Positions 38,530 through 55,667 of a stretch of DNA of 64,000 nt are shown one piece after another (within the stretch, counting starts at the first letter, position 1; each line of letters begins with the position of its first letter). Below the pieces are notes generated by a model, which was given only the letters and a program-made list of their open reading frames with translations, was not told where the DNA came from and searched no databases. Source of the DNA: Escherichia coli (lineage in GTDB: Bacteria > Pseudomonadota > Gammaproteobacteria > Enterobacterales > Enterobacteriaceae); the NCBI RefSeq assembly GCF_048403405.1, contig NZ_CP183129.1. One strand, written 5' to 3'. Both the position numbers and the translations under genes were made by a program.

Positions 38530-39003
38530 TTATTTCAGGCACTGAGTGCGGATATAGTCCTGTGCCCCTTCCAGTTGCTTGTGCATCGTCATCAGCCGCT
38601 CTCTGAGGGTGAAATAATCCCGTGTAACGGTGTCTGCCAGTTGGGGGCCGGTTGCATTATCCACGCCGGAGGTGGTGGGGGCTTCACGCACGGAGCCTGG
38701 ACAGGTGGCGTTGATCCGCAGGCGCTTACGACCAGCGGCAACGTCAGCGCGAAGAGTTTCATTTTCAGCTCTCGCATCGGCTAATTCCCTCGAGTATTTT
38801 GCATCGAGCGCAGCAACATCGCGCTGGCGCACCTGCATATCAGTAATGGTTGCGTTCGCCAGCTTCAGTTCACTGGCTTTGTTATCGCGCTGCGCTTTGT
38901 AGGTAATCGCGTTATCACGGTAATGGTCTGTTGCCATCCACAGCGCACCACAGGCCACCAGCAGAATAACGATAAACGCGGAAAGCATTCGGTTTATGTT
39001 CAC
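38530..39003 (-). CDS. Rz: i-spanin Rz
   Basis: 157-aa ORF similar to lambda Rz ([15 protein letters not shown] ... [10 protein letters not shown] ... [17 protein letters not shown]). Confidence 0.9.
38592..38777 (-). CDS. Rz1: o-spanin Rz1 (embedded in +1 frame of Rz)
   Basis: 61-aa ORF with lipobox and proline-rich core [14 protein letters not shown], as in lambda Rz1. Confidence 0.8.
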
Positions 39004-39131
39004 CCCAGCAACCCCGACGAAGACAACATCATCCAGGCCATGGAAAGAAAAAGAGCAACCAGCATTAGTGAAAATGAAATGCCGACAATTACACAGAGGA
39101 TCTTCGCCAGCGTTATGAGTTTGTCTGACAT
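39000..39131 (-). CDS. hypothetical small membrane protein (43 aa)
   Basis: Strong RBS (GGGAGG) before ATG; single hydrophobic TM segment; sits between R and Rz. Confidence 0.35.
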
Positions 39132-39145
39132 GCTTAATCCTCCCT

Positions 39146-39292
39146 TCACGATTTCAACGCAATGACCAGTTTTGCCAGCCCATACAGCATCGGGGACACA
39201 GCAACACCGACCGCCACCCACTTAATGGCAAAAGCCAGTGCTCTGCTGATGTCATCAGTTACAGGCGCTTTCAGTTCAAGGCCATTTTTCAT
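39146..39292 (-). CDS. hypothetical small membrane protein (48 aa)
   Basis: Short ORF with one hydrophobic segment between R and Rz; start uncertain. Confidence 0.3.
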
Positions 39293-39484
39293 AGTCAACC
39301 TCAACAGAATTCGTTTACACTTCGCCATGTTCTCCCTTGCCTTACTCAAGGTCAGAAACACAAAACCTCGCTTGGTGCCAACAAACGGGGTTTTTACTTT
39401 TATTCACTTACGTTTCGCCAGTTCGCAGGATTTCGTGTTATCCGCCCGCGTGGCCATTCCTCATTTTTCAGCAAAATATTCTGC

Positions 39485-40018
39485 TTATCTGTCGATACCC
39501 CAGCACGCCAGCGCGCTCTCCTGGTCACGACGGGATACCTGACCGTAACAGTTGTTTGAACGAATACGGCAGTCTCTGCCACCGTCCTTAATCCACCAGC
39601 GAATCGCTTCGCAGGCACCTTTTCGATCACCAGCATTAATTCGTCTGTAAAACGTCGACGGGAAACACTTACCGGGATCAATGTTGTACGGACAGAATGA
39701 CGCGATCCCCGCTTTCTGGGGTTCGGTCAGCGGCACTCTGATGTTTTTCTCCACCCACGCCAGCGCTTTATCACGCTCAATGGCGTTAACCTGGTCGCAT
39801 TTTTCCTTCGACAACTTCATGCCCGGAACGACAGGTTTGCCATCCACCATGATGGCACCACGGCAGATGGTCCAGATACCTGCACCATCACGGTATGCCG
39901 TGGTGTGGTTGCCTTCCTTTTCATCCAGAAACTGGTCGAGAATGTCAGGCGCAGGCGCACCAGCGGCAATCAGCGCCAGAACGGCAGCCGACAGGCCGTA
40001 TTTGATTTTGGTGTTCAT
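39485..40018 (-). CDS. R: SAR-endolysin (GH24 lysozyme R)
   Basis: 177-aa ORF; N-terminal Gly/Ala-rich weakly hydrophobic SAR segment then T4-lysozyme-like E...D...T catalytic pattern (EKEGNHTTAYRDGAGIWTICRG). Confidence 0.85.
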   Translation of the reverse strand: MNTKIKYGLSAAVLALIAAGAPAPDILDQFLDEKEGNHTTAYRDGAGIWTICRGAIMVDGKPVVPGMKLSKEKCDQVNAIERDKALAWVEKNIRVPLTEPQKAGIASFCPYNIDPGKCFPSTFYRRINAGDRKGACEAIRWWIKDGGRDCRIRSNNCYGQVSRRDQESALACWGIDR

Positions 40019-40054
40019 GGATATATTAAATATTCAGCCGCTGTCCCTGGCCCA

Positions 40055-40945
40055 CTAAATACGCACTTTAAGATAAGTCAGCCCCGGATGAAGCCAGTAA
40101 GCCGGCACTTTTTTAAAGGGTGGAGTATTAAAATCACGAAGAAGAGCCTCCCGCACAATTGCATCCTTATCAGCACCACTGGCCAGCGCTTCAATCTCAG
40201 CGGCTACCTGAAGATATCCCATGCAACGGCCAACGCGCTTCATCAGCCCCTGCTTTTTATTGTTCTTCAGGTAATCAATGGCAAATTCAATGAGCTCCTC
40301 ACTGTGCTGGTGCGATGGAGGTGTTACTTTCCCATTTTCTGAGATGGTTATTTTCCCAGCATCACCGGATACAACAAAGGATGGCCGGTTACACTCCCAT
40401 TCCGGGTCACTGAAATTATCATTATGAATACTGAAACACTCTGCGAGATTTCTGCTCATCACTTTCCGACAATAATCGTCAAACGCAGCAAACTGCTTTT
40501 CATCGCCAGAAGGCACCAATATCGACCATTTCTTATTCAGCTCAACGACGTAGCTCTCCAGTTTTTCAATACGTGATTCAACATCATCTTTTTCTGACCG
40601 CAGTGTTGACGGCGGCATCTTCAGAGAACAAGTAATTCTTCCCGGTAGCTTTCCTTTGTAGGTTATCAACATATCCTGCGCCTCTAAAATTACGGGGCGC
40701 TTTTCCGGCAACGGTTCGTTCCATTCACATAACCCGGCAGCAACATCCATGAAAAACTGCTTCGCCTGCTTTTTCGCCTCAGCTTCGTAAAACTCCAGCG
40801 TGGCACCTTCAGTACGGTCAAGACTAATCGCCACATCTGGCAACAACAGCGACGCTTGCCCGTCACCTTCCGACTTCACAGTAACAGTAACCTTATCCCC
40901 GTAATTATTTATCCCCTTAACAACCAGTTCATATTTTTTATTCAT
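40055..40945 (-). CDS. hypothetical protein (296 aa) between holin and endolysin
   Basis: Start abuts holin stop with GGGGAGAG RBS; no family recognised by inspection. Confidence 0.55.
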   Translation of the reverse strand: MNKKYELVVKGINNYGDKVTVTVKSEGDGQASLLLPDVAISLDRTEGATLEFYEAEAKKQAKQFFMDVAAGLCEWNEPLPEKRPVILEAQDMLITYKGKLPGRITCSLKMPPSTLRSEKDDVESRIEKLESYVVELNKKWSILVPSGDEKQFAAFDDYCRKVMSRNLAECFSIHNDNFSDPEWECNRPSFVVSGDAGKITISENGKVTPPSHQHSEELIEFAIDYLKNNKKQGLMKRVGRCMGYLQVAAEIEALASGADKDAIVREALLRDFNTPPFKKVPAYWLHPGLTYLKVRI

Positions 40946-40949
40946 CACT

Positions 40950-41165
40950 TTACTCTCCCCGCGCCGCCTTACGCCGGTCCTCTTTGATTTTGAAATACAG
41001 GTTAGTCAGATATGTCAGCAGCCCAAACAGCAGACTCCCCAGCACGCCTATTGCCGCCCACTGAGACGGGGAAACCCTGTCCAGCAACTGCAGGAACCAG
41101 TAGCCCGTTCCCACCGCTGACGTGGTGTATGACACACCTGTTGTGATTTTTTCCATCTGGTACAT
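40950..41165 (-). CDS. S: pinholin (S21-type holin, dual-start MYQM)
   Basis: 71-aa ORF nearly collinear with phage 21 S ([45 protein letters not shown]); two in-frame starts. Confidence 0.85.
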
Positions 41166-41472
41166 ACCCCGTCTCCCGTTATCCGGAAGCTGACAACAAT
41201 AAAAAAGCCACCAGTTAAGTACTGATGGCTCTGATAACTCATGCAGGCGTCTCAGACGCCCCACTGACACTACCGGTGAGTTTAACGATACCTTCCATTT
41301 GACTGGCTCACTTTTTATGATGATGCCGGTGCATTTATCTCCAGCACCAGACTTTCTATCTCAACGCCATACGTTGCATTTTTGGTAATATCCGTCAGCG
41401 TCAGTGCATTTAGTCCCACTGCCAGACCGTCTTTTATGGCCTGGAATGCCGGGCCAGTACGATGACGTAGTA

Positions 41473-41661
41473 TCACTCCGGCTCAGTTGCACCACTGACC
41501 ACCACATCACCTTCTGCTGCAATCGCCTGCATCAGGGTATAAGGGGTTATGGCCACCGGACTACCAAACGGCTGCCAGCCCTCTTTCAGTTTATGTGTCA
41601 GCTTTTCCGCAAGATCTGACGGCGACGCCGCCCTGACAACATCATAGTGTTTAAATGCCAT
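41473..41661 (-). CDS. small conserved prophage protein (DUF1737-like, assignment unverified)
   Basis: 62-67-aa ORF upstream of holin, a position commonly occupied by a small conserved ORF in lambdoid lysis cassettes. Confidence 0.45.
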   Translation of the reverse strand: MAFKHYDVVRAASPSDLAEKLTHKLKEGWQPFGSPVAITPYTLMQAIAAEGDVVVSGATEPE

Positions 41662-41921
41662 GGTTCTTTCCACCATCTGAAAAATGATTCTTTAAAATAC
41701 CTGACATGTAATACAGAAAAAACACAAAACCATACCTTAAATAAAAACCTCATCATCAAGCAGATATGCATGGATAAACTACAAGACGAGATATAAACCA
41801 CCCTGCATTTAAATAAACAATAAACAACATCAGAAAAATAATTCTGCTCTATGGTTTACAATCAAAAATATCATTTATACTTTTCAGAACATCACCAGCA
41901 AGGCATAAACAAGGAAACTAA

Positions 41922-42257
41922 ATGAAGTGGATTGTGATTGATACAGTTATCCAGCCATCATGCGGAATATCTTTTTCAGTCATATGGAGTAAAATAAAAT
42001 TAATAATCTGGTATCAATCGGATGCTTTCTTACCTCCTGAAAGTATATTTACACTGACTCACACAGGTATCATGCTCAATAACAAAGTGCTACCTGTAAC
42101 CATTTACAACGTAGTACCATTCAATAAAACATTCTGGAATTTAATCAAAAACAGCCAGGAATGCCCTACAAATACAGATAACGTATTGAATGAATGCTTT
42201 AATAACCGTTGCACTCTGCAAATATGTCCTTATGGGCTAAAACAACAAAGTCCATAA
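41922..42257 (+). CDS. hypothetical Cys-containing protein (111 aa) in AT-rich island, opposite strand to late operon
   Basis: AAGGAA RBS 6 nt before ATG; very AT-rich upstream region; no recognisable family. Confidence 0.4.
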
Positions 42258-42270
42258 GGAGTTTACTCAC

Positions 42271-42313
42271 ATCTGACAAAATCAATATAAACAGCCCCTC
42301 CGGAGAGGGGCTG
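42271..42313 (-). terminator. intrinsic terminator (minus strand) upstream of lysis cassette
   Basis: Hairpin CAGCCCCTC-CGGA-GAGGGGCTG followed on minus strand by TTTATATTGATTTT. Confidence 0.5.
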
Positions 42314-42610
42314 GAGAGTGGCGCTATGTGCCATTGCATGGTGCCGGGTGCCTCCCGGTGAATTCAGTACCAGCACCTGAATCCGCGATTATCCCATATA
42401 CCTACTCGCTGATTGCCCCTCCGCACAGGGGGATTCACCATGCCAGTTTCTTTTAACAAACTCCCCGCAAACCAGACAACAGTCAACCGCCTGAATTGTG
42501 AAGTATTTAAAAATTTCTCCCGCTAACTGATACCCGGCTAACAGTCTGGCGTTTTCTTTTTCAGCAACGGGAAAGCAACAACCACCACACCCACCAGCCG
42601 CCCATTTACC

Positions 42611-42639
42611 ACAAATAAAAAAGCCTTCAGGACTGAAGG
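42611..42639 (-). terminator. intrinsic terminator (minus strand) about 400 nt downstream of Q; tR'-like candidate
   Basis: Hairpin CCTTCAG..CTGAAGG followed by CTTTTTTATTTGT on minus strand. Confidence 0.5.
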
Positions 42640-42947
42640 TGTCTGTAACAACCAAACTGATAGTCTGCCAGACCCGCCATAACAAGCTGGGTCAGTATTA
42701 ACTGGCAGCGTTCGCGTGAAAGGTAAGTATTCTGTGCAATCTCCCTGACTGTCGCCGGGTCGGTAACGCTTAATTCATTAAACACCACTCTGGCGGCTTC
42801 TGTCATATCCTGCTGTTTTAGCATGTCTTTTTCCCTTTTCCGGTTAACGTGACATACCAATAACTCTTGTCGAAAAAGCCGGCAAGCTGAAAGACCCGTA
42901 TTCGCAACCACCAGCGCGTTTACTGTACTGACGCGATTTTCGGACAT
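42627..42947 (-). CDS. hypothetical protein between Q and late terminator
   Basis: ORF only; terminator overlaps its 3' end; coding status uncertain. Confidence 0.3.
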   Translation of the reverse strand: MSENRVSTVNALVVANTGLSACRLFRQELLVCHVNRKREKDMLKQQDMTEAARVVFNELSVTDPATVREIAQNTYLSRERCQLILTQLVMAGLADYQFGCYRHLQS

Positions 42948-43036
42948 AAAAAAAACCACCTGGCGGTGGTTTTTTCTTACTTTGCCATCACGTACAAAAT
43001 CGGCAAAATATCAGATTTATACGAAACATACGCGAT

Positions 43037-43732
43037 TTAATTGACTTTTGCAATATCTCGTCGTGAAAAGGTCGCTTTTTGTTGCGCTCTTATTTTCACG
43101 GAGCAAATCAAGGATTCTCTATCGAGGCGCTTAAAAATATCGCACATCTCACGCCAGTAGTTCGCATAATTATGGCTCCAGTTATCAGGCTTAACTCCAC
43201 ACAGTCTGGCAAGCTCCTGTCTCTGGTAGACCTCACACCCGGTAACCCATCCTCTGACATCCTGTGCCGCCAGCCAGATCAACTTCTTCACACGCTCCAG
43301 CGTTTTCACTGCAATTTTTCTGGAGCCGGACTGAGTTTTAAATTCACTCCACCCCCACTGCGTTATCGCGATCTGATGCTCCCAGCAAATGTTTCCGCCA
43401 TAACACCACAACAACCACGCCTTCTGATGTTCTTCCAGTTCCAGAACAGCACGCCGCCACGATGATGTTGCAAACTCAACAGGACTGACCAGCGCAATTG
43501 ATGAGCCTTTCGCCAGTGATTGTTTACCCTGGATCGGGGGATTATCCCGCGTGATCATTTTTCCGGTTACCTCATCGCGGTAACGAATTTTTTTGCGTCT
43601 GTAACGCCCTGTATCGAACAGGGCATTTTCCTGCCAGGCTTCCAGCTGGCATTTTGTCGACCCACTGAGATCTGCAGTGGCAATCATGAGTTGCTCACGA
43701 ACAAACTGTAAATACTGGTTATTCATGCACAC
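43037..43732 (-). CDS. Q: late antiterminator Q-like protein (QuuQ/phage-82 type)
   Basis: 231-aa ORF directly upstream of candidate pR'/tR' region and downstream of rusA; Cys/His-containing; family assignment by position and recalled similarity. Confidence 0.6.
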   Translation of the reverse strand: MCMNNQYLQFVREQLMIATADLSGSTKCQLEAWQENALFDTGRYRRKKIRYRDEVTGKMITRDNPPIQGKQSLAKGSSIALVSPVEFATSSWRRAVLELEEHQKAWLLWCYGGNICWEHQIAITQWGWSEFKTQSGSRKIAVKTLERVKKLIWLAAQDVRGWVTGCEVYQRQELARLCGVKPDNWSHNYANYWREMCDIFKRLDRESLICSVKIRAQQKATFSRRDIAKVN

Positions 43733-44087
43733 CCACCTCTGTAATTCTTATCTCCAGCCGTCCACCAGATACTGGCTGGCCACGTACAATATTGATTTCA
43801 TCAAACTGCTCATCGTCCATTAACAACCCCGCGTGCGTCAGCGCATCCAGTGGTGCTTTCAGAATATTGTCCAGGTCACGACGACGCTTATCCGGTGGCT
43901 CTGCAATAATTTTTATTGCCAGCCGTCCGGACAGGCTTAATTTCAGTCGCTGCTGGCGAACAATAAGCGCCACTGCCCGGCGATAACGCTCCCCGGCTTT
44001 TGATACAAAATATGTGCTGCCACGGCGTCGCCAGTAAGTGTTCACCGTCGGCGAGTAAGGCAAAACAAATTCTATGCGTTCGGTCAT
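43719..44087 (-). CDS. rusA: Holliday junction resolvase RusA
   Basis: 122-aa ORF with RusA motifs (YWRRRG ... RRRDLDN ... GGRLEI.ITE). Confidence 0.85.
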   Translation of the reverse strand: MTERIEFVLPYSPTVNTYWRRRGSTYFVSKAGERYRRAVALIVRQQRLKLSLSGRLAIKIIAEPPDKRRRDLDNILKAPLDALTHAGLLMDDEQFDEINIVRGQPVSGGRLEIRITEVGVHE

Positions 44088-45146
44088 TTATGCTTTCCAC
44101 TTCAGAACACCCGAATTTCTCGCGTGCATTAAAAAACGAATCAGCAACAACAACTGACTACCGTGTTTTTCTTCAAAATCTTTTACCCCGGCGTGTAGTT
44201 CGTTATGGCATTTACGACACAGCGGAATAACAAACAAATCGTCAGCCTTTGTTCCCATCCCTCCCAGTCCATGACCAATGATGTGATGCGGATCATCTGC
44301 CTGATTGCCACACGTCATGCATTTCTGCGTTTTTACCCAGCGCGTGTATACAGGCATCTCTTCCCGTTGTGGTTTCTGGCGCTGGAGATACTGAGCCGGA
44401 GATTCCGGATCAACGGCAATGCTGACCACCGTCTTTTCCTGTGGTGGGTTCTGTTGCTGGTGGGCGTGAGGCAGCGGCGCAAGATTTTTTGTGCGCTGTT
44501 TCAGTATGCTGGTGGCGGTCTGCTCTCCCGGTACGATGTCGCTTTCACGGTACATTGAGCGGATTTTTTCCGCACGCAACCCCAGCGAACGACGTAATAC
44601 CGCTTCCGGTAGCGCGTCCGCCACCTGATTGCGGACCGCCCACCAGGATAATTCAGCCAGCGATAATTCCCGTTCCTGCGAGCCATTCATTGCATGGCGT
44701 ATGACGTCAATCATCCATGCAGACAGGTTTTGGTGAGCAAGTTGCCCGAGTGATTCGGAGGTCTGGTCGCGCAGCTGGTTGTCGCAGTGCCAGCACAACA
44801 CCATTGCGCCGGTACCATAACGGTGAATGACGGTTTCACTGTGGTGATAATCGCCGTGTGGCCACTGGCAGGATTTAACATGGCGCAGTAACCAGTCAGA
44901 CAATGCGCCAGCGCCACCAGCAGCACGAATCACTCGTTCGTCGCTGAAAAATGGCAGTAATGATTTATCCTCCGCCAGCGGCTGGCGAACGGCAGGAACG
45001 ACCCCGGACGACAGATTACGCATGCTTTTCGGTTCCGGCTCCACCAGTACCCGGGTATTGTGGAATACCGGCATGGATTCACGGCCCGGTTTTAGCACCA
45101 CCAGCCCAAGTTCCGGTACCAGAACAGGTCGAAGTAATACCCGCAC
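44088..45146 (-). CDS. DUF968-like prophage protein with C-terminal HNH-like zinc motif (YdfU-like)
   Basis: 352-aa ORF; C-terminal CMTCG ... HHIIGHGLGGMGTKADD ... CRKCHNELH; same neighbourhood (Q, rem-like, hok) as Qin ydfU. Confidence 0.7.
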   Translation of the reverse strand: MRVLLRPVLVPELGLVVLKPGRESMPVFHNTRVLVEPEPKSMRNLSSGVVPAVRQPLAEDKSLLPFFSDERVIRAAGGAGALSDWLLRHVKSCQWPHGDYHHSETVIHRYGTGAMVLCWHCDNQLRDQTSESLGQLAHQNLSAWMIDVIRHAMNGSQERELSLAELSWWAVRNQVADALPEAVLRRSLGLRAEKIRSMYRESDIVPGEQTATSILKQRTKNLAPLPHAHQQQNPPQEKTVVSIAVDPESPAQYLQRQKPQREEMPVYTRWVKTQKCMTCGNQADDPHHIIGHGLGGMGTKADDLFVIPLCRKCHNELHAGVKDFEEKHGSQLLLLIRFLMHARNSGVLKWKA

Positions 45147-45147
45147 G

Positions 45148-45426
45148 TTACCTCCAGATGCGTTGCTGGAATGTGCGGGACGGACGCGGTGGCCGTTCGG
45201 AGTAAGGGAGCCTGACGGAGATTATCCAGTGACGATAATCGAGGCTGAGGGCTTTCTTAATCTCGTATCCGTGTCTGCGGTAGCACTGAATTAGCCACTC
45301 GGCCTGTTCTTCAGTGCATGGGGGATGCTGGTACCAGTCTGACTTAAATGCATGAGAATACCGCTCGTGCGTGTGGGCAAGAACGGTCGAATTATCATGA
45401 TTGTAATATTTTGCGTTGCGTGCCAT
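45148..45426 (-). CDS. hypothetical protein (92 aa)
   Basis: ORF tightly packed after DUF968-like gene. Confidence 0.4.
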   Translation of the reverse strand: MARNAKYYNHDNSTVLAHTHERYSHAFKSDWYQHPPCTEEQAEWLIQCYRRHGYEIKKALSLDYRHWIISVRLPYSERPPRPSRTFQQRIWR

Positions 45427-45492
45427 CGGTTTTCTCCGGTGGCACGGTGTTACTCAGCGGGAGTTCAGCCCCGCGCAAGATTGTAGATGAGT

Positions 45493-45744
45493 TTATTCTT
45501 CTGAAAAAGCAGAAAAGCCAGCTTTTATTCCGATCTCTTTCAATGCCTGTAATGAAGTGACAAACTCACCGTCGTGCAAGATAAATCCGTCCGTCACTCG
45601 GGCATCCACAAAATTAATTAACGCAGCCCCATTTTTTTGCAAACACACAATGCGGTAATGGCTAACAATATTTCCATTTTCAACGCACACAGCATAGAGG
45701 CCATCTTCACAAAAAATTTTACGCAGTTCTTCGATGTTCATCAT
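45493..45744 (-). CDS. hypothetical protein (83 aa), possibly Rem-like by position
   Basis: 83-aa ORF between ydfU-like and hok, the position/size of Qin rem (sequence identity not verifiable from memory). Confidence 0.4.
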   Translation of the reverse strand: MMNIEELRKIFCEDGLYAVCVENGNIVSHYRIVCLQKNGAALINFVDARVTDGFILHDGEFVTSLQALKEIGIKAGFSAFSEE

Positions 45745-45960
45745 CAGAATCCTTCCGGATAATTAGCTCTCCCCTTTAAGGGACCATCCCTCTTATCCCT
45801 GCGCGCTACTTAAGTATTTTTGATTCTATTCCGGCACCGTCCAGAACTTCAAATGCGTTGAAAATAAAAACAAAAACCCGCCGAAGCGGGTTAAGTGCGG
45901 GTGCGTTGAGGATGCCTGCCACATCAGAGGTGGCGAGGGATTTCTCCCTCGCCTGGTCTC

Positions 45961-46116
45961 TTACTCCTCAGGTTCGTAAGCTGTGAAGACAGCGACCTCC
46001 GTCTGGCCGGTTCGGATTCGTACCTCGCAGAGGTCTTTCCTCGTTACCAGTGCCGTCACTATGACGGTTAAACAGATGACGATCAGGGCGATTAACATCG
46101 CCTTTTGCTGCTTCAT
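45961..46116 (-). CDS. hok: Hok/Gef-family type I toxin (51 aa)
   Basis: Translation MKQQKAMLIALIVICLTVIVTALVTRKDLCEVRIRTGQTEVAVFTAYEPEE is a canonical Hok-family peptide; not in the ORF track (below size cut-off). Confidence 0.85.
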   Translation of the reverse strand: MKQQKAMLIALIVICLTVIVTALVTRKDLCEVRIRTGQTEVAVFTAYEPEE

Positions 46117-46129
46117 AGCCTGCTTCTCC

Positions 46130-46230
46130 TTGACCTTTCGGTCCGTAAGAGGCTAATCTCTATGTGTCGCATAGATATGGCCTCAGATTAATGTTAAGCG
46201 TCTTGCAGGACGCGTAATGTTAACTGGGGC
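46130..46230 (+). ncRNA. sok: expected Sok-type antisense RNA / mok leader region of hok locus (location approximate)
   Basis: By analogy with hok/sok loci the antisense RNA overlaps the hok mRNA leader; exact ends not determined. Confidence 0.3.
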
Positions 46231-46374
46231 TTTTCTCTATCTGCCTTTTGGTGTTCATGCCTGAGACAGATAGCCTCAAGCACCCGCAGTTATTCTACTT
46301 AACTAAGATTTCCCCGCAAACCGTTTTTGTCCGGCACAGTAAATATCCAACTAAACCAATGGCGTTCGCTGTAT

Positions 46375-54282: not shown

Positions 54283-54584
54283 TTTATTCACAGGTGAGGT
54301 AGAGTGCGTGCGCCGGACACGGATAAGAATCCGGCACTGACAGTTTACTAAAAAGGATATATCCCTGAAAAGTCAGGGCATAACACGAAAGCGCCCGGCG
54401 AAGTTAGTCTCTCTGTATAGGTCGTCGTTAAATTTAATTCGATCGTGCGCTTCCGGTTGTGGCAATCCGCGAAATGGCGCGGCGGTAAGTATGGCTGGGG
54501 TTTCCTCCATTGCTCCAGAAAATGCACCGGGTTGTCAGGTTGACCATACGCTTAAGTGACAGCCCCGCCACAATACCCATGTGT

Positions 54585-54637
54585 AGTCTTTGGTGGCATC
54601 AGTTCTACTCCGTGACTGCTCTGCCACCCTTTTTAAA
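54585..54637 (+). ncRNA. dicF: DicF-like small RNA (3' stem-loop/terminator region conserved)
   Basis: TTTGGTGGCATCAGTTCTACTCCGTGACTGCTCTGCCACCCTTTTT closely matches recalled DicF 3' portion, with compensatory stem changes GGCGG/CCGCC to GGTGG/CCACC. Confidence 0.55.
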
Positions 54638-54812
54638 GTGAATTTTGTGATGCGGTGAATGCGGCTAAGCGCACGCGGAACAGTTAAAACCAAAAACAGT
54701 GTTATGGGTGGATTCTCTGTATCCGGCGTTAATTGTTAACTGGTTAACGTCACCTGGAGGCACCAGGCACCGCATCAACAAAGTTCACTTCGGTGATGAA
54801 AGGTAAGAGAAA

Positions 54813-55667
54813 ATGTTGAATGTAGCTATTGAAAACCAGAACGGGTGGAATTATAGTGCACCTGCACCTCATAAAACGGGTGCCGGGCGTGGAAACCCGG
54901 AATTCAATCAAGCGCATAACCGCGCTCAGGCGGTTTTTTTATGCGTCAAGCACAGCCACATTCAGATTATGGTGGGGCGTGCAGGGCAGCTGCAAGGCTG
55001 GCCGGATTCTTGGTTGACCGGTATTTCCACCCCTGTACGCCTCACCACCCTTATGGTCGTGGAAAACCTTGGTGGTGAGTTATTAATACTCAACCAAGAG
55101 GCTGCCATTATGGCTACTATCCCTACCCTTTCTCACCCTGACGTAACCATCGAAAATGGTCGCGCTGTCACTACGTCTGTTGCGGTTGCAGAGTTCTTCC
55201 GCAAAATGCACAAGGACGTTCTGCGCAAAATTGAAACGCTAGAATGCTCTGAAGATTTTAACGAGCGCAATTTTACGCCCGTTACCTACACCGACGCCAA
55301 AGGCGAAAAACGCCCCATGTACCAAATCACCAAAAACGGCTTCGTTTTCCTGGTGATGGGGTTCACAGGTAAAAAAGCCGCAACTTTCAAAGAAGCCTAC
55401 ATCGCTGAGTTCGATCGCATGGAGGAAGAACTGCGCCAGAATAACGCCCCGTCTCCCGACAAAATGATTCACGGGGACGGACGCACCCTGGTTATCCGTC
55501 TCGACGAACACGGCAATATCAAATTCACTGAAACCGTTCCTGACGGCGCAATGGTCTGCACCCTGGATACCTTCCGGTTTTATCTGGAGAAACAAGGATG
55601 GACTCTTGTAAACCGGAGCGCAATTAAAAATATGACTGTGGAGCAATTGCTAAAAATTCATTGTTGA
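54813..55667 (+). CDS. Rha-family phage regulatory protein (possible antirepressor); start uncertain
   Basis: C-terminal 185 aa carry Rha-like motifs (AVAEFF.K.H..VLR.I ... MGFTGKKA..FKEAYI.EFDRMEEEL); alternative start at 55110. Confidence 0.65.
   Translation: MLNVAIENQNGWNYSAPAPHKTGAGRGNPEFNQAHNRAQAVFLCVKHSHIQIMVGRAGQLQGWPDSWLTGISTPVRLTTLMVVENLGGELLILNQEAAIMATIPTLSHPDVTIENGRAVTTSVAVAEFFRKMHKDVLRKIETLECSEDFNERNFTPVTYTDAKGEKRPMYQITKNGFVFLVMGFTGKKAATFKEAYIAEFDRMEEELRQNNAPSPDKMIHGDGRTLVIRLDEHGNIKFTETVPDGAMVCTLDTFRFYLEKQGWTLVNRSAIKNMTVEQLLKIHC

Follow-up and report, generated by a model that had tools for sequence, protein, structure and literature searches.

The interval between the Q gene and the lysis genes of an Escherichia coli prophage: a predicted phage-82-type late promoter with its leader, a small winged-helix gene and an STnc100 sRNA

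Q, the late promoter pR' and its leader

The window analysed here, a stretch of 64,000 nucleotides of E. coli DNA (contig NZ_CP183129.1 of assembly GCF_048403405.1), contains at 43037-42271 the interval that separates a late-gene antiterminator gene from the lysis genes of a lambdoid prophage. Read in the direction of late transcription, which is the minus strand, this interval carries a predicted late promoter (pR') and terminator (tR'), a gene for a protein of 65 amino acids and an sRNA of the STnc100 family, and it is followed by a convergent iraM-like gene on the plus strand. It belongs to a widespread E. coli prophage, carried for example by strain 7/2 (NZ_CP023820), and is 100% identical in many clinical isolates, and RefSeq records of it hold nothing but 'hypothetical proteins' and a spurious pseudogene lying over the sRNA.

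The antiterminator gene (43037-43726, minus strand) encodes a Q protein of 229 amino acids whose assignment is the same by Pfam, PHROG and RefSeq (PF06323 Phage_antiter_Q, E 2.2e-82, 276 bits at a cut-off of 25; PHROG 304, E 1e-102; WP_001064909.1, 'bacteriophage antitermination protein Q'). PMC9388147 identifies PF06323 with the Q82 family. A sequence search of the protein against PDB chains did not match it to Q-lambda or Q21, whose structures have been solved. Among the Q families, Q82 alone still awaits, to our knowledge, the solution of its structure and mechanism.

The late promoter pR' is predicted at 43025-43053 on the minus strand, with a -35 element TTGCAA (43053-43048), a spacer of 17 nt, a -10 element TATGTT (43030-43025) and a transcription start site (TSS) at 43018. 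The spacer contains the stop codon TAA of Q (43039-43037), and the promoter overlaps the 3' end of that gene. In six aligned Q82-family loci from phages of E. coli, Enterobacter and Klebsiella, TTGCAAAA as well as A2 and T6 of the -10 element are invariant, and the architecture TTGCAA-17-TATGTT recurs, as a sequence match in a pattern search, in 8 Q82-family loci from three genera. A generic promoter scan did not list pR'. Immediately downstream, a sigma70-dependent pause element is predicted at 43002-43013 (minus strand), consisting of the extended -10-like sequence TG-A-TATTTT (+6 to +14) followed by GCC (+15 to +17). All aligned Q82-family loci share its TGATAT without variation, and the triplet at +15 to +17 is rich in G+C, being GCC in seven of the eight loci and CGC in Enterobacter phage CobraSix. 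With the TSS taken as 43018, polymerase would pause at +25/+26 (42994/42993), and there is a U at +25. For pR' of phage 82 the published rules (PMC5001585) call for an extended -10-like element, for GCC at +15-17 together with an AT-rich stretch, and for pausing at +25/26, where position +25 is a U; in its sequence the spacing of the predicted pause element fits these rules exactly.

The first intrinsic terminator of the late strand, and by pattern scan and folding also the strongest, is tR' at 42948-42975 (AAAAAACCACCgccaGGTGGTTTTTTTT; a hairpin plus T8). Because of its A6...T8 symmetry it resembles a terminator on either strand, and the scan matched it on both. Minimum-free-energy folds place a further hairpin between the pause site and tR' (42980-43010, minus strand), and the 91-nt leader stretch 43030-42940 that includes both hairpins folds with -27 kcal/mol (z -4.2, with none of 200 shuffles as good). 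The leader hairpin is kept in close relatives from E. coli but is probably dispensable, because it is absent from Klebsiella locus L019. A terminator is found at the equivalent place in every Q82-family homologue, 30-100 nt after the predicted TSS, and the stems of tR' covary between copies (CCACC/GGTGG, CCGCC/GGCGG and CCCGC/GCGGG). Moreover, the mosaic homology block that is common to phages with other Q types begins at 42973, that is, at the tR' hairpin. We predict from these features that tR' ends a leader of about 70 nt. Rfam gave only sub-threshold matches to the leader; isrK (19.4 bits) and Phe_leader (28.3 bits) as well as STnc370 on the plus strand (35.9 bits) were all rejected as leader families, as they score below gathering and are driven by the terminator hairpin.

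A first-pass annotation of this DNA had counted two late-strand terminators in the interval, at 42611-42639 and 42271-42313. Both are present at these positions, but there are three, and the strongest one, at 42975-42948, had been missed. A pattern scan of 40500-45000 finds 13 terminator-like sites, compared with 4.2 +/- 2.2 in shuffles. With tR' in place the claim that the layout differs from the short pR'-tR' leader of lambda has to be withdrawn, since this terminator would end the leader about 70 nt after a phage-82-type pR'. It also changes the first of two readings offered at that time, the one nearer to what is found, namely that the interval encodes a small protein and a 6S-like terminated leader: both exist, but the predicted leader is ended by neither of the two terminators then listed. 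Taken literally, this reading has the pR' RNA run for about 400 nt through the open reading frame and end at 42639-42611 as a constitutive, long 6S-like leader. The reading frame and its hairpin plus T6 are indeed real and conserved together and a strong independent promoter ahead of them was not found, all of which would suit such a transcript. The far stronger, conserved and covarying terminator that lies between pR' and the reading frame, and that has its counterpart in all Q82-family homologues, should however stop unmodified polymerase well before, and we regard a leader of this length as very unlikely.

A conserved winged-helix gene and the hairpin at its stop codon

The second reading held that the reading frame is spurious and that the whole of 43037-42271 is an extended non-coding pR'-tR' region. 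The frame in question had been listed with 110 codons and a GTG start (42959-42627). It is there, but we reject this form as an artefact: it begins inside the descending arm and T-tract of tR', and its first 45 codons overlap tR' and the untranslated leader. The conserved gene is the 65-codon ATG form at 42627-42824 (minus strand), which starts at 42824 and has the SD-like sequence GGGAAAAAG upstream. Its product (RefSeq WP_001309418.1) has 274 homologues, mostly of 63-65 amino acids, in Escherichia, Salmonella, Klebsiella, Citrobacter and Buttiauxella, among which the start MLKQQDMT is conserved; the family forms 86 clusters at 50% identity. Substitutions in the reading frame favour third codon positions (e.g. 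0/1/8) and the protein matches PHROG 331 with E 5e-36.

AlphaFold2 gave an unusable model of the protein from a shallow alignment (pLDDT 63), and with a deeper alignment a model of pLDDT 92.4 with the topology H-b-H-H-b-b. Foldseek matched this model to winged helices of the MarR/OhrR/SarZ/IclR kind (TMq 0.7-0.84; for OhrR, SarZ and IclR 0.76-0.84 with E about 2e-3). The model thus confidently predicts a winged helix-turn-helix fold. Many of the homologues carry the NCBI name 'TrmB family transcriptional regulator'; the protein itself misses the gathering threshold of Pfam TrmB (PF01978; 19.4 bits versus 25.6), and it differs from MarR and TrmB proteins in being devoid of their dimerisation helices. 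A sequence search against PDB chains gave nothing useful, and the NCBIfam match to RefZ (16.6 bits at a cut-off of 180) was discarded as meaningless.

What can be said for a spurious reading frame is that its 110-codon version is in part just that, over its first 45 codons, and that gene callers disagree about its start, giving products of 64-110 amino acids. The 65-amino acid core, on the other hand, is conserved, its start and length being fixed, in five genera or more, and together with the codon position bias, the PHROG family membership and the confidently predicted fold this leaves a purely non-coding interval hardly any credibility. Judged by its conservation, the 65-codon reading frame is a real gene that belongs to a conserved family of enterobacterial prophages.

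As had been noted in the first-pass annotation, the 3' end of the reading frame overlaps a terminator-like sequence (terminator 1, 42613-42639, minus strand). It consists of a 6-bp hairpin over the stop codon, CCTTCAG-tc-CTGAAGG, followed by T6-A-T3, and the TGA stop lies within the 3' arm. In the pattern scan the hairpin spans 42639-42624, has three G-C pairs among its six and a loop of 4, and is followed by CTTTTTTATTT. Its local fold is unexceptional (z -0.6, with 49 of 200 shuffles as good). The hairpin is kept, with a different loop, in phiP27 and PhiR5_1, and also in Salmonella and Klebsiella, where CCTTC/GAAGG is changed to CCTCC/GGGGG and the T-tract is degraded in both. Such conservation with compensating changes is what supports terminator 1, which may be a weak intrinsic terminator or a stabiliser of the mRNA 3' end of the winged-helix gene.

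A promoter scan found no consensus sigma70 promoter before the winged-helix gene, and because there is no convincing one the gene is most probably the first of the late genes that depend on Q. Upstream of it lies a conserved TTGnnG-17-TATTGG / AGAGTTATnnGTnTGTCA motif, and an invariant motif at 42867-42850 is placed 26 nt upstream of the reading frame. The latter could be a promoter or an operator; if so, the gene would not depend on Q. It may also be weakly expressed on its own.

Downstream of terminator 1, a 20-nt block (AATGGGCGGCTGGTGGGTGT; 42587-42606, minus strand) is invariant across genera in the alignment and contains a Chi site (42598-42591), and the ends of blastn blocks place a mosaic breakpoint at 42587, where this block ends. 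Chi sites number 12, compared with 2.2 in shuffles. E. coli DNA has Chi about once per 4.5 kb, and given this usual frequency we do not regard the density as special and note only the local clustering and the coincidence with the breakpoint. A reading frame of 24 codons at 42538-42612 (minus strand) is annotated by PGAP as 'DUF3927 family protein' (WP_214277461.1) and matches Pfam PF13064 with 29.9 bits, over profile positions 31-53 of 53 only. Because just the C-terminal half of the profile is covered and there is no SD sequence, we reject it as a real gene; it is probably a remnant that is not functional.

The STnc100 sRNA and its neighbours

The remainder of the interval is occupied by STnc100 (Rfam RF02076; 42283-42472, minus strand), which cmscan identifies over model positions 1-206 of 206 with 132.4 bits against a gathering score of 47 (E 7.6e-30). 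It is made up of a closed multi-helix core (42443-42336), a variable single-stranded linker (42335-42314) and a terminator (42313-42292) whose T-rich tail reaches to about 42277. The terminator hairpin has 9 bp, seven of them G-C, followed by TTTATATTGATTTTG; its fold is better than most shuffles (z -2.8, with 4 of 200 as good) and two of its pairs covary across homologues. Other copies have a better tail than the present one (GUUUAUAUUGAUUUU), in which the 3' U-tract is interrupted. This hairpin is the second terminator of the first-pass annotation, in which its identity as the end of a curated sRNA had gone unrecognised. Both of the terminators noted at that time are accounted for by known kinds of element, and nothing new is involved.

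In RNAalifold and pair-count tests on an alignment of only 9 sequences, the structure of STnc100 comprises 37 pairs with 99.1% of cells paired, and six pairs are changed on both sides, compared with 2.2 +/- 1.2 in shuffles (one of 500 reaching six) and 0-1 in slid controls. Neither helix 1 nor helix 5 has a pair changed on both sides, which makes them uninformative: helix 5 never varies and helix 1 has a single one-sided change. Seven, four and five pairs of helices 1, 2 and 5, respectively, never vary. The flanks and the 3' linker, by comparison, are swapped between copies, and the linker found here is the 'AAUGGCACAUAGCGCCACUCUCC' variant that is also carried by the copies of an Stx1 phage, PhiR5_1 and PhiR12_2. 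A tRNA-like reading of the core was considered and then dropped.

A candidate promoter region for STnc100 lies at 42450-42486 (minus strand), with TTGACT at 42486-42481 and an extended -10-like TGtTAAAAG at 42458-42450. Among 10 aligned STnc100 copies TCACAATTCAGnCnGTTGAC and TGnTAnAAnA are conserved, and homology always begins at about 42501-42510. The two motifs are 25 nt apart, and we rejected their combination into one standard sigma70 promoter. The Rfam model begins about 30 nt upstream of the preferred predicted TSS.

But is STnc100 at this site an RNA in its own right? It might instead be mainly a cis-acting segment of the late mRNA, serving in processing, stability or termination control ahead of the lysis genes, with its terminator as a second barrier to unmodified polymerase. 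Its near-invariant helices 1, 2 and 5 amid exchanged flanks and linkers would be in keeping with this, as would its constant location in lambdoid prophages, where it occupies the pR' strand after the moron site and before the lysis genes, and the publications consulted on the family establish no target or function. Against it, copies of this multi-copy family are abundant in uninduced EHEC, and one has been verified as a discrete RNA by Northern blotting in EDL933 (PMC5331693). EcOnc27, which lies downstream of stx2B and overlaps STnc100, is bound by Hfq, and its overexpression alters the levels of fimZ and espA (PMC12711010). In addition, the related PasD sRNAs have RIL-seq interactomes, and the promoter-like motifs upstream of STnc100 are conserved. 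In the convergent pairs of sRNAs that occur at the moron site, STnc100 is reported to be the partner on the pR' strand (PMC4104026; see also bioRxiv 10.64898/2026.05.13.724894 for the family). We therefore consider a mainly cis-acting role unlikely and, by analogy with the copies studied elsewhere, predict that STnc100 is here too a discrete, Hfq-associated sRNA transcribed from its own promoter.

Convergent with STnc100 and located on the opposite strand is a moron gene for an iraM-like anti-adapter (41922-42257, plus strand; RefSeq WP_000871291.1), which matches NCBIfam NF007393 with 162 bits at a cut-off of 121. The next late-strand reading frame, ahead of the holin gene (41165-40950), is a DUF1737 frame at 41473-41676 (minus strand; Pfam PF08410, E 4e-17) that RefSeq lists as a pseudogene. 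It is homologous to the start of a gene for about 650 amino acids in PhiR5_1 and Stx phages, and by this homology is the N-terminal remnant of a nanS-p/YjhS-type esterase gene.

A more speculative proposal concerns the two conserved elements of the interval. In different phages the winged-helix gene stands directly after tR' behind three Q types, namely the 126-aa Q of Stx2 phages, a PF06530-like Q in Salmonella and the PF06323 Q of Klebsiella and this window, and in relatives a DNA methylase usually comes next. These three Q families are unrelated, and the methylase to which the gene is usually coupled is an orphan N6/N4 DNA methylase. The stand-alone winged-helix protein might be a hitherto undescribed factor that regulates the late switch or the expression of the phage methylase, kept here without that methylase. 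Separately, the multi-helix core of STnc100, nearly invariant and joined to 3' linkers that can be swapped, might be a scaffold for protein binding or processing rather than a plain base-pairing sRNA. We put this proposal forward tentatively and think it rather improbable.

The moron insertion site in comparison with lambda, phage 82 and Stx phages

Taken together, we think it probable that a Qin-like lambdoid E. coli prophage has its 'moron insertion site' at 43037-42271, with three tandem late-strand units that each have an intrinsic terminator of their own; this estimate applies to the joint explanation by a pR'-tR' leader, a winged-helix gene, STnc100 and read-through mediated by Q. In the first unit transcription would start at about 43018, at a phage-82-type pR' overlapping the end of the Q82-family Q gene, and RNA polymerase would pause at about +25 on the extended -10-like element and, without Q, terminate at tR' to leave a leader as counterpart of lambda 6S RNA. 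The second unit would be the winged-helix gene (42824-42627), closed at its stop codon by the weak hairpin with its T6, and the third STnc100 (about 42472/42443 to 42283), which would be made in the lysogen from its own promoter and end at the 42313-42292 hairpin. After induction, Q would load at the paused complex and render polymerase resistant to all three terminators, and the modified polymerase would run antisense through the convergent iraM-like gene into the DUF1737 remnant and the holin and lysozyme genes.

Resolving the interval matters chiefly for annotation, and a specialist in lambdoid phages will find no surprise in it. Exact coordinates can now be given for a predicted Q82-type late promoter, a conserved small protein is flagged, and the dissection into pR'/tR', winged-helix gene, STnc100 and iraM shows that the site corresponds to the stx insertion site but is free of the toxin.

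Lambda and the Stx2 phage Sp5 make 6S RNA and StxS, respectively, as their short pR'-tR' transcripts, and StxS has a function in trans. The RNA predicted here is likewise short, with about 70 nt, and would be made constitutively from pR' and ended at tR' without Q, but the Q family and the sequence are different. The late control region of phage 82 has a Q of the same Pfam family and a promoter that overlaps the 3' end of Q, and it resembles the present one in its pause element of the extended -10-like kind, in having GCC at +15-17 and U at +25, and in its downstream intrinsic terminator; this likeness was judged by the published rules (PMC5001585) and not by alignment with the phage 82 sequence.

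STnc100, which is also known as EcOnc27/sRNA103 and is related to the PasD sRNAs of prophages in pathogenic E. coli, agrees with the known copies in its helices, its strand and its placement, with the pR' moron preceding it and the lysis genes following, and the start of its module matches that of copies beginning 45 nt after stx1B or stx2B. Unlike these it is preceded by the winged-helix gene and the DUF3927 remnant and not by stx, and its convergent partner is the iraM-like protein gene and not an anti-sRNA of the AsxR/AgvB type, for which Rfam gave no match at E <= 1 in 39000-46000.

Phage PhiR5_1 carries 42973-42293 as one contiguous block with 89.7% identity. The window segments 42973-42587 and 42501-41907 match the Stx2a phage Stx2_EH2201, where they flank its methylase-tRNA-stx2AB segment. 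The module of tR', winged-helix gene and hairpin is common to this phage and to the Stx2e phage phiP27 (92% and 89% identity), the STnc100-iraM module is shared at 71% identity, and the order of the modules is the same. The Stx2a/Stx2e phages have a different Q, of 126 amino acids, and between the two modules a 2.8-kb segment with N6/N4 methylase, tRNAs and stx2AB, whereas the present prophage has 85 nt there, including the DUF3927 remnant; ARAGORN finds no tRNA genes in the window. Since both modules are common to Stx2 phages, in which methylase, tRNAs and stx2AB are inserted between them, we conclude that the interval described here is the toxin-free version of this site.

The predicted late promoter and its terminated leader

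The window is E. coli chromosome with a Qin-like lambdoid prophage, the late strand of which is the minus strand. The 900 bases around the Q-to-lysis interval occur with 100% identity in many complete E. coli genomes; at least 80% of these bases is present in 175 of 5,426 genomes and some part of them in 3,217 of 5,426 (genome search). In an identical locus RefSeq lists, in order, hokD, rem, DUF968, RusA, 'bacteriophage antitermination protein Q', hypothetical proteins of 65 and 15 aa, a pseudo-CDS, an IraM anti-adapter on the opposite strand, a DUF1737 pseudogene, a class II holin, a YdfR fragment and lysozyme. Elsewhere in the window (13061-13259, 46114-46285 and 54578-55052) the Rfam families IS009, sok, DicF, isrK and C4 score over their thresholds, in keeping with a Qin-like prophage immunity region plus a hok/sok module. 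Between the rem/hokD region and an 83-aa ORF there is also a sub-threshold isrK-like match (45871-45952, minus strand; 25.7 bits versus 50), which ends in a good terminator, AACCCGCttcgGCGGGTTTTT, and may be an unannotated small RNA or a terminator only.

All components of the Q-to-lysis interval are of known kinds, and their family membership, conservation, covariation and synteny are directly observed. A pattern scan finds 13 terminator-like sites around the interval as compared to 4.2 +/- 2.2 in shuffles. The two late-strand terminators described in the first-pass annotation are among the hairpin-plus-T sites (42639-42624 and 42313-42292, minus strand), but a third one, AAAAAACCACCgccaGGTGGTTTTTTTT at 42975-42948, had been missed although it is by far the best of the interval. 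The 91-nt leader stretch that holds it (43030-42940) folds with -27 kcal/mol (z -4.2, no shuffle as good), whereas the 42313 hairpin is moderate (z -2.8) and the 42639 hairpin on its own is weak (z -0.6).

The site at 42975-42948 is tR'. Q (43037-43726, minus strand) falls into the Q82 family by its Pfam domain, PF06323 (E 2e-82); which Pfam entry stands for which of the three Q families is taken from PMC9388147. A sequence search of solved structures with Q returned no relative. The 3' end of Q and the downstream DNA were aligned for six loci of the Q82 family (phages of E. coli, Enterobacter and Klebsiella), and the comparison was widened to eight loci by pattern search. Conserved among these loci are a -35 element TTGCAA (43053-43048), a 17-nt spacer in which the Q stop codon lies, and a -10 element TATGTT (43030-43025; A2 and T6 invariant), followed by an invariant TGATAT five bases past the predicted start. 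The pR' pause of phage 82 has been described as an extended -10-like element with GCC at +15-17, a pause at +25/26 and U at +25 (PMC5001585). With the start set at 43018, the window has TG-A-TATTTT at +6 to +14, GCC at +15 to +17 and U at +25 with an A/T-rich stretch in between, and thus matches the published geometry exactly at the sequence level. In every Q82-family homologue compared, an intrinsic terminator follows at a distance of 30-100 nt from the start, and the tR' stem carries compensating substitutions across copies of the downstream module (CCACC/GGTGG, CCGCC/GGCGG, CCCGC/GCGGG). The predicted Q-independent product is a leader of about 70 nt ending at tR', and the earlier view that the interval lacks a short pR'-tR' leader is therefore contradicted. 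With its A6 - hairpin - T8 symmetry, tR' is called as a terminator on the plus strand as well, where it also gives a sub-threshold STnc370-like match (35.9 bits); antisense transcripts arriving from iraM could be halted there before reaching Q.

A small winged-helix gene and the hairpin at its stop codon

The 110-aa ORF proposed earlier is listed as a GTG ORF (42959-42627), and its stop codon does sit in the 42639 hairpin. Its GTG start, however, lies within the descending arm of tR', and it is the 65-codon ATG form (42824-42627, minus strand; WP_001309418.1) that is conserved. Searching 5.8 billion proteins yielded 274 relatives, typically of 63-65 aa, from Escherichia, Shigella, Salmonella, Klebsiella, Citrobacter and Buttiauxella; where versions are longer, gene callers have chosen another start. 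The N-terminus MLKQQDMT is kept among relatives, and substitutions among the DNA copies are biased to third codon positions (e.g. 0/1/8). Codon 27 (42744-42746) specifies Arg in the window copy, Gly in 18 of 19 aligned relatives and Trp in the remaining one. The protein belongs to PHROG 331, a function-unannotated family, and its family is small (86 clusters at 50% identity). AlphaFold2 (30-sequence alignment) models it with a pLDDT of 92.4 and a helix-strand-helix-helix-hairpin topology, and Foldseek relates the model to winged-helix domains of OhrR, SarZ and IclR and to O-methyltransferase N-termini (TMq up to 0.84, E about 2e-3). The Pfam TrmB score does not reach threshold (19.4 versus 25.6 bits), and we therefore class the protein as a stand-alone winged helix outside TrmB.

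In Stx2 phages, phiP27 and Salmonella and Klebsiella prophages the gene directly follows tR', behind three Q types, and is itself followed about 150 nt downstream by an N6/N4 DNA methylase; the window has no methylase. Also absent from the window is the spacer of about 150 nt that separates the two genes in relatives (comparison loci L003, 3886-3996, and L018 and the Klebsiella locus L019, 2693-2842). It contains blocks conserved across genera, GGTCACAAGC, GCGCAAAAGC and TGAGCCTATCA, split by 1-nt indels, a pattern more suggestive of a regulatory DNA or RNA element than of coding sequence. The promoter scan listed no minus-strand promoter in this interval. The motif AGAGTTATnnGTnTGTCA (42867-42850, minus strand) lies 26 nt upstream of the ATG, with TTGnnG 17 nt upstream of TATTGG. 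It does not vary among the copies of E. coli, Salmonella and Klebsiella despite diverging flanks and might serve as a weak promoter or as an operator.

The stop-codon hairpin (42639-42613) is kept in relatives, with a loop that differs in phiP27 and PhiR5_1. Salmonella and Klebsiella preserve it through a change from CCTTC/GAAGG to CCTCC/GGGGG, and there the T-tract has decayed. We rate it as a weak terminator or a 3' stabiliser of the small gene, and it is somewhat more likely than not to cause termination.

STnc100 and the convergent iraM-like gene

The second terminator of the first-pass annotation (42313-42292) belongs to an sRNA. The stretch 42472-42283 (minus strand) is Rfam STnc100, covering the full model with 132.4 bits versus a gathering score of 47. 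The earlier observation is real but incomplete, and its interpretation partly right: a small protein and a terminated leader both exist, but the leader end had been assigned to the wrong terminator and the curated sRNA not recognised. In the consensus an 8-bp closing helix (42443-42436 with 42343-42336) encloses three inner hairpins and is followed by a variable single-stranded linker and the terminator. In the consensus-structure test 99.1% of cells are paired, and six pairs, two of them in the terminator, are changed on both sides (2.2 in shuffles, 0-1 in slid controls). Ten phage copies can be aligned and share a start at about 42501-42510, which in Stx phages lies 45 nt past the stxB stop codon. 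Candidate promoter motifs are a conserved TTGACT (42486-42481) and, 25 nt apart from it, an extended -10-like TGtTAAAAG (42458-42450). The RefSeq pseudo-CDS ('hypothetical protein, incomplete'; 42328-42453, plus strand) runs opposite to the STnc100 core and is almost certainly a spurious call.

EDL933 has 11 STnc100 copies; they are abundant in uninduced cells, and a Northern blot confirmed one of them (PMC5331693). STnc100 overlaps the Hfq-bound EcOnc27/sRNA103 downstream of stx2B (PMC12711010), has been described as the pR'-strand partner in convergent sRNA pairs at the moron site (PMC4104026) and is related to PasD sRNAs (bioRxiv 10.64898/2026.05.13.724894). In phage phiSTEC1589-Stx1c (L006) a tandem STnc100 pair, at 1568 and 1841, follows stx1B, the two differing in central regions and 3' linkers.

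Convergent with STnc100 and within the late operon lies an iraM-like anti-adapter gene (41922-42257, plus strand; NCBIfam 162 bits), which late transcription would traverse antisense. Anti-adapters of the IraM type inhibit RssB and stabilise RpoS. Stx2a phage Stx2_EH2201 has the same gene after stx2B and STnc100. The DUF1737 ORF beyond it (67 aa, 41473-41676, minus strand; a RefSeq pseudogene) is only an N-terminal remnant of a nanS-p/YjhS-type esterase gene of about 650 aa; Stx phages and PhiR5_1 have this gene at full length.

Proposed working and relation to Stx phages

Most likely, late transcription stops at tR' in the lysogen and reads through under Q after induction. In the lysogen pR' would fire and polymerase would pause at about +25 and stop at tR', while STnc100 would have a promoter of its own and iraM would be transcribed from the opposite strand. 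Upon induction, Q would modify the paused polymerase, which would then pass tR', the hairpin at the stop codon and the terminator of STnc100, cross iraM in antisense and reach the holin and lysozyme genes by way of the DUF1737 remnant. The start sites, the pausing, the efficiencies of termination and the dependence of the small gene on Q are inferred.

Immediately past the stop-codon hairpin a 20-nt block, unchanged across genera from E. coli to Klebsiella, carries a Chi site (42598-42591). Four nt past this Chi site, at 42587, the phages that carry the methylase cease to be homologous. Within the 85 nt after 42587 lies a 24-aa ORF (42538-42612, minus strand; PGAP 'DUF3927 family protein') that matches the C-terminal half of the Pfam profile only, has no SD and is probably a gene remnant at a recombination joint. 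The window holds 12 Chi sites (GCTGGTGG) versus 2.2 expected from shuffles, 10 of them on the minus strand and 8 between 38955 and 45105, and two (42591-42598 and 42908-42915, minus strand) flank the winged-helix gene. This arrangement suggests Chi-stimulated module exchange.

The mosaic is seen in Stx2_EH2201, which shares 42973-42587 (tR', winged-helix gene and hairpin) at 92% identity and 42501-41907 (STnc100 and iraM) at 71%, the two blocks flanking a 2.8-kb methylase-tRNA-stx2AB segment. In PhiR5_1, 42973-42293 is contiguous (89.7% identity), behind a 126-aa Q. The interval is therefore a toxin-free arrangement of the same insertion site as in Stx2_EH2201, and one that is found also in an isolated phage.
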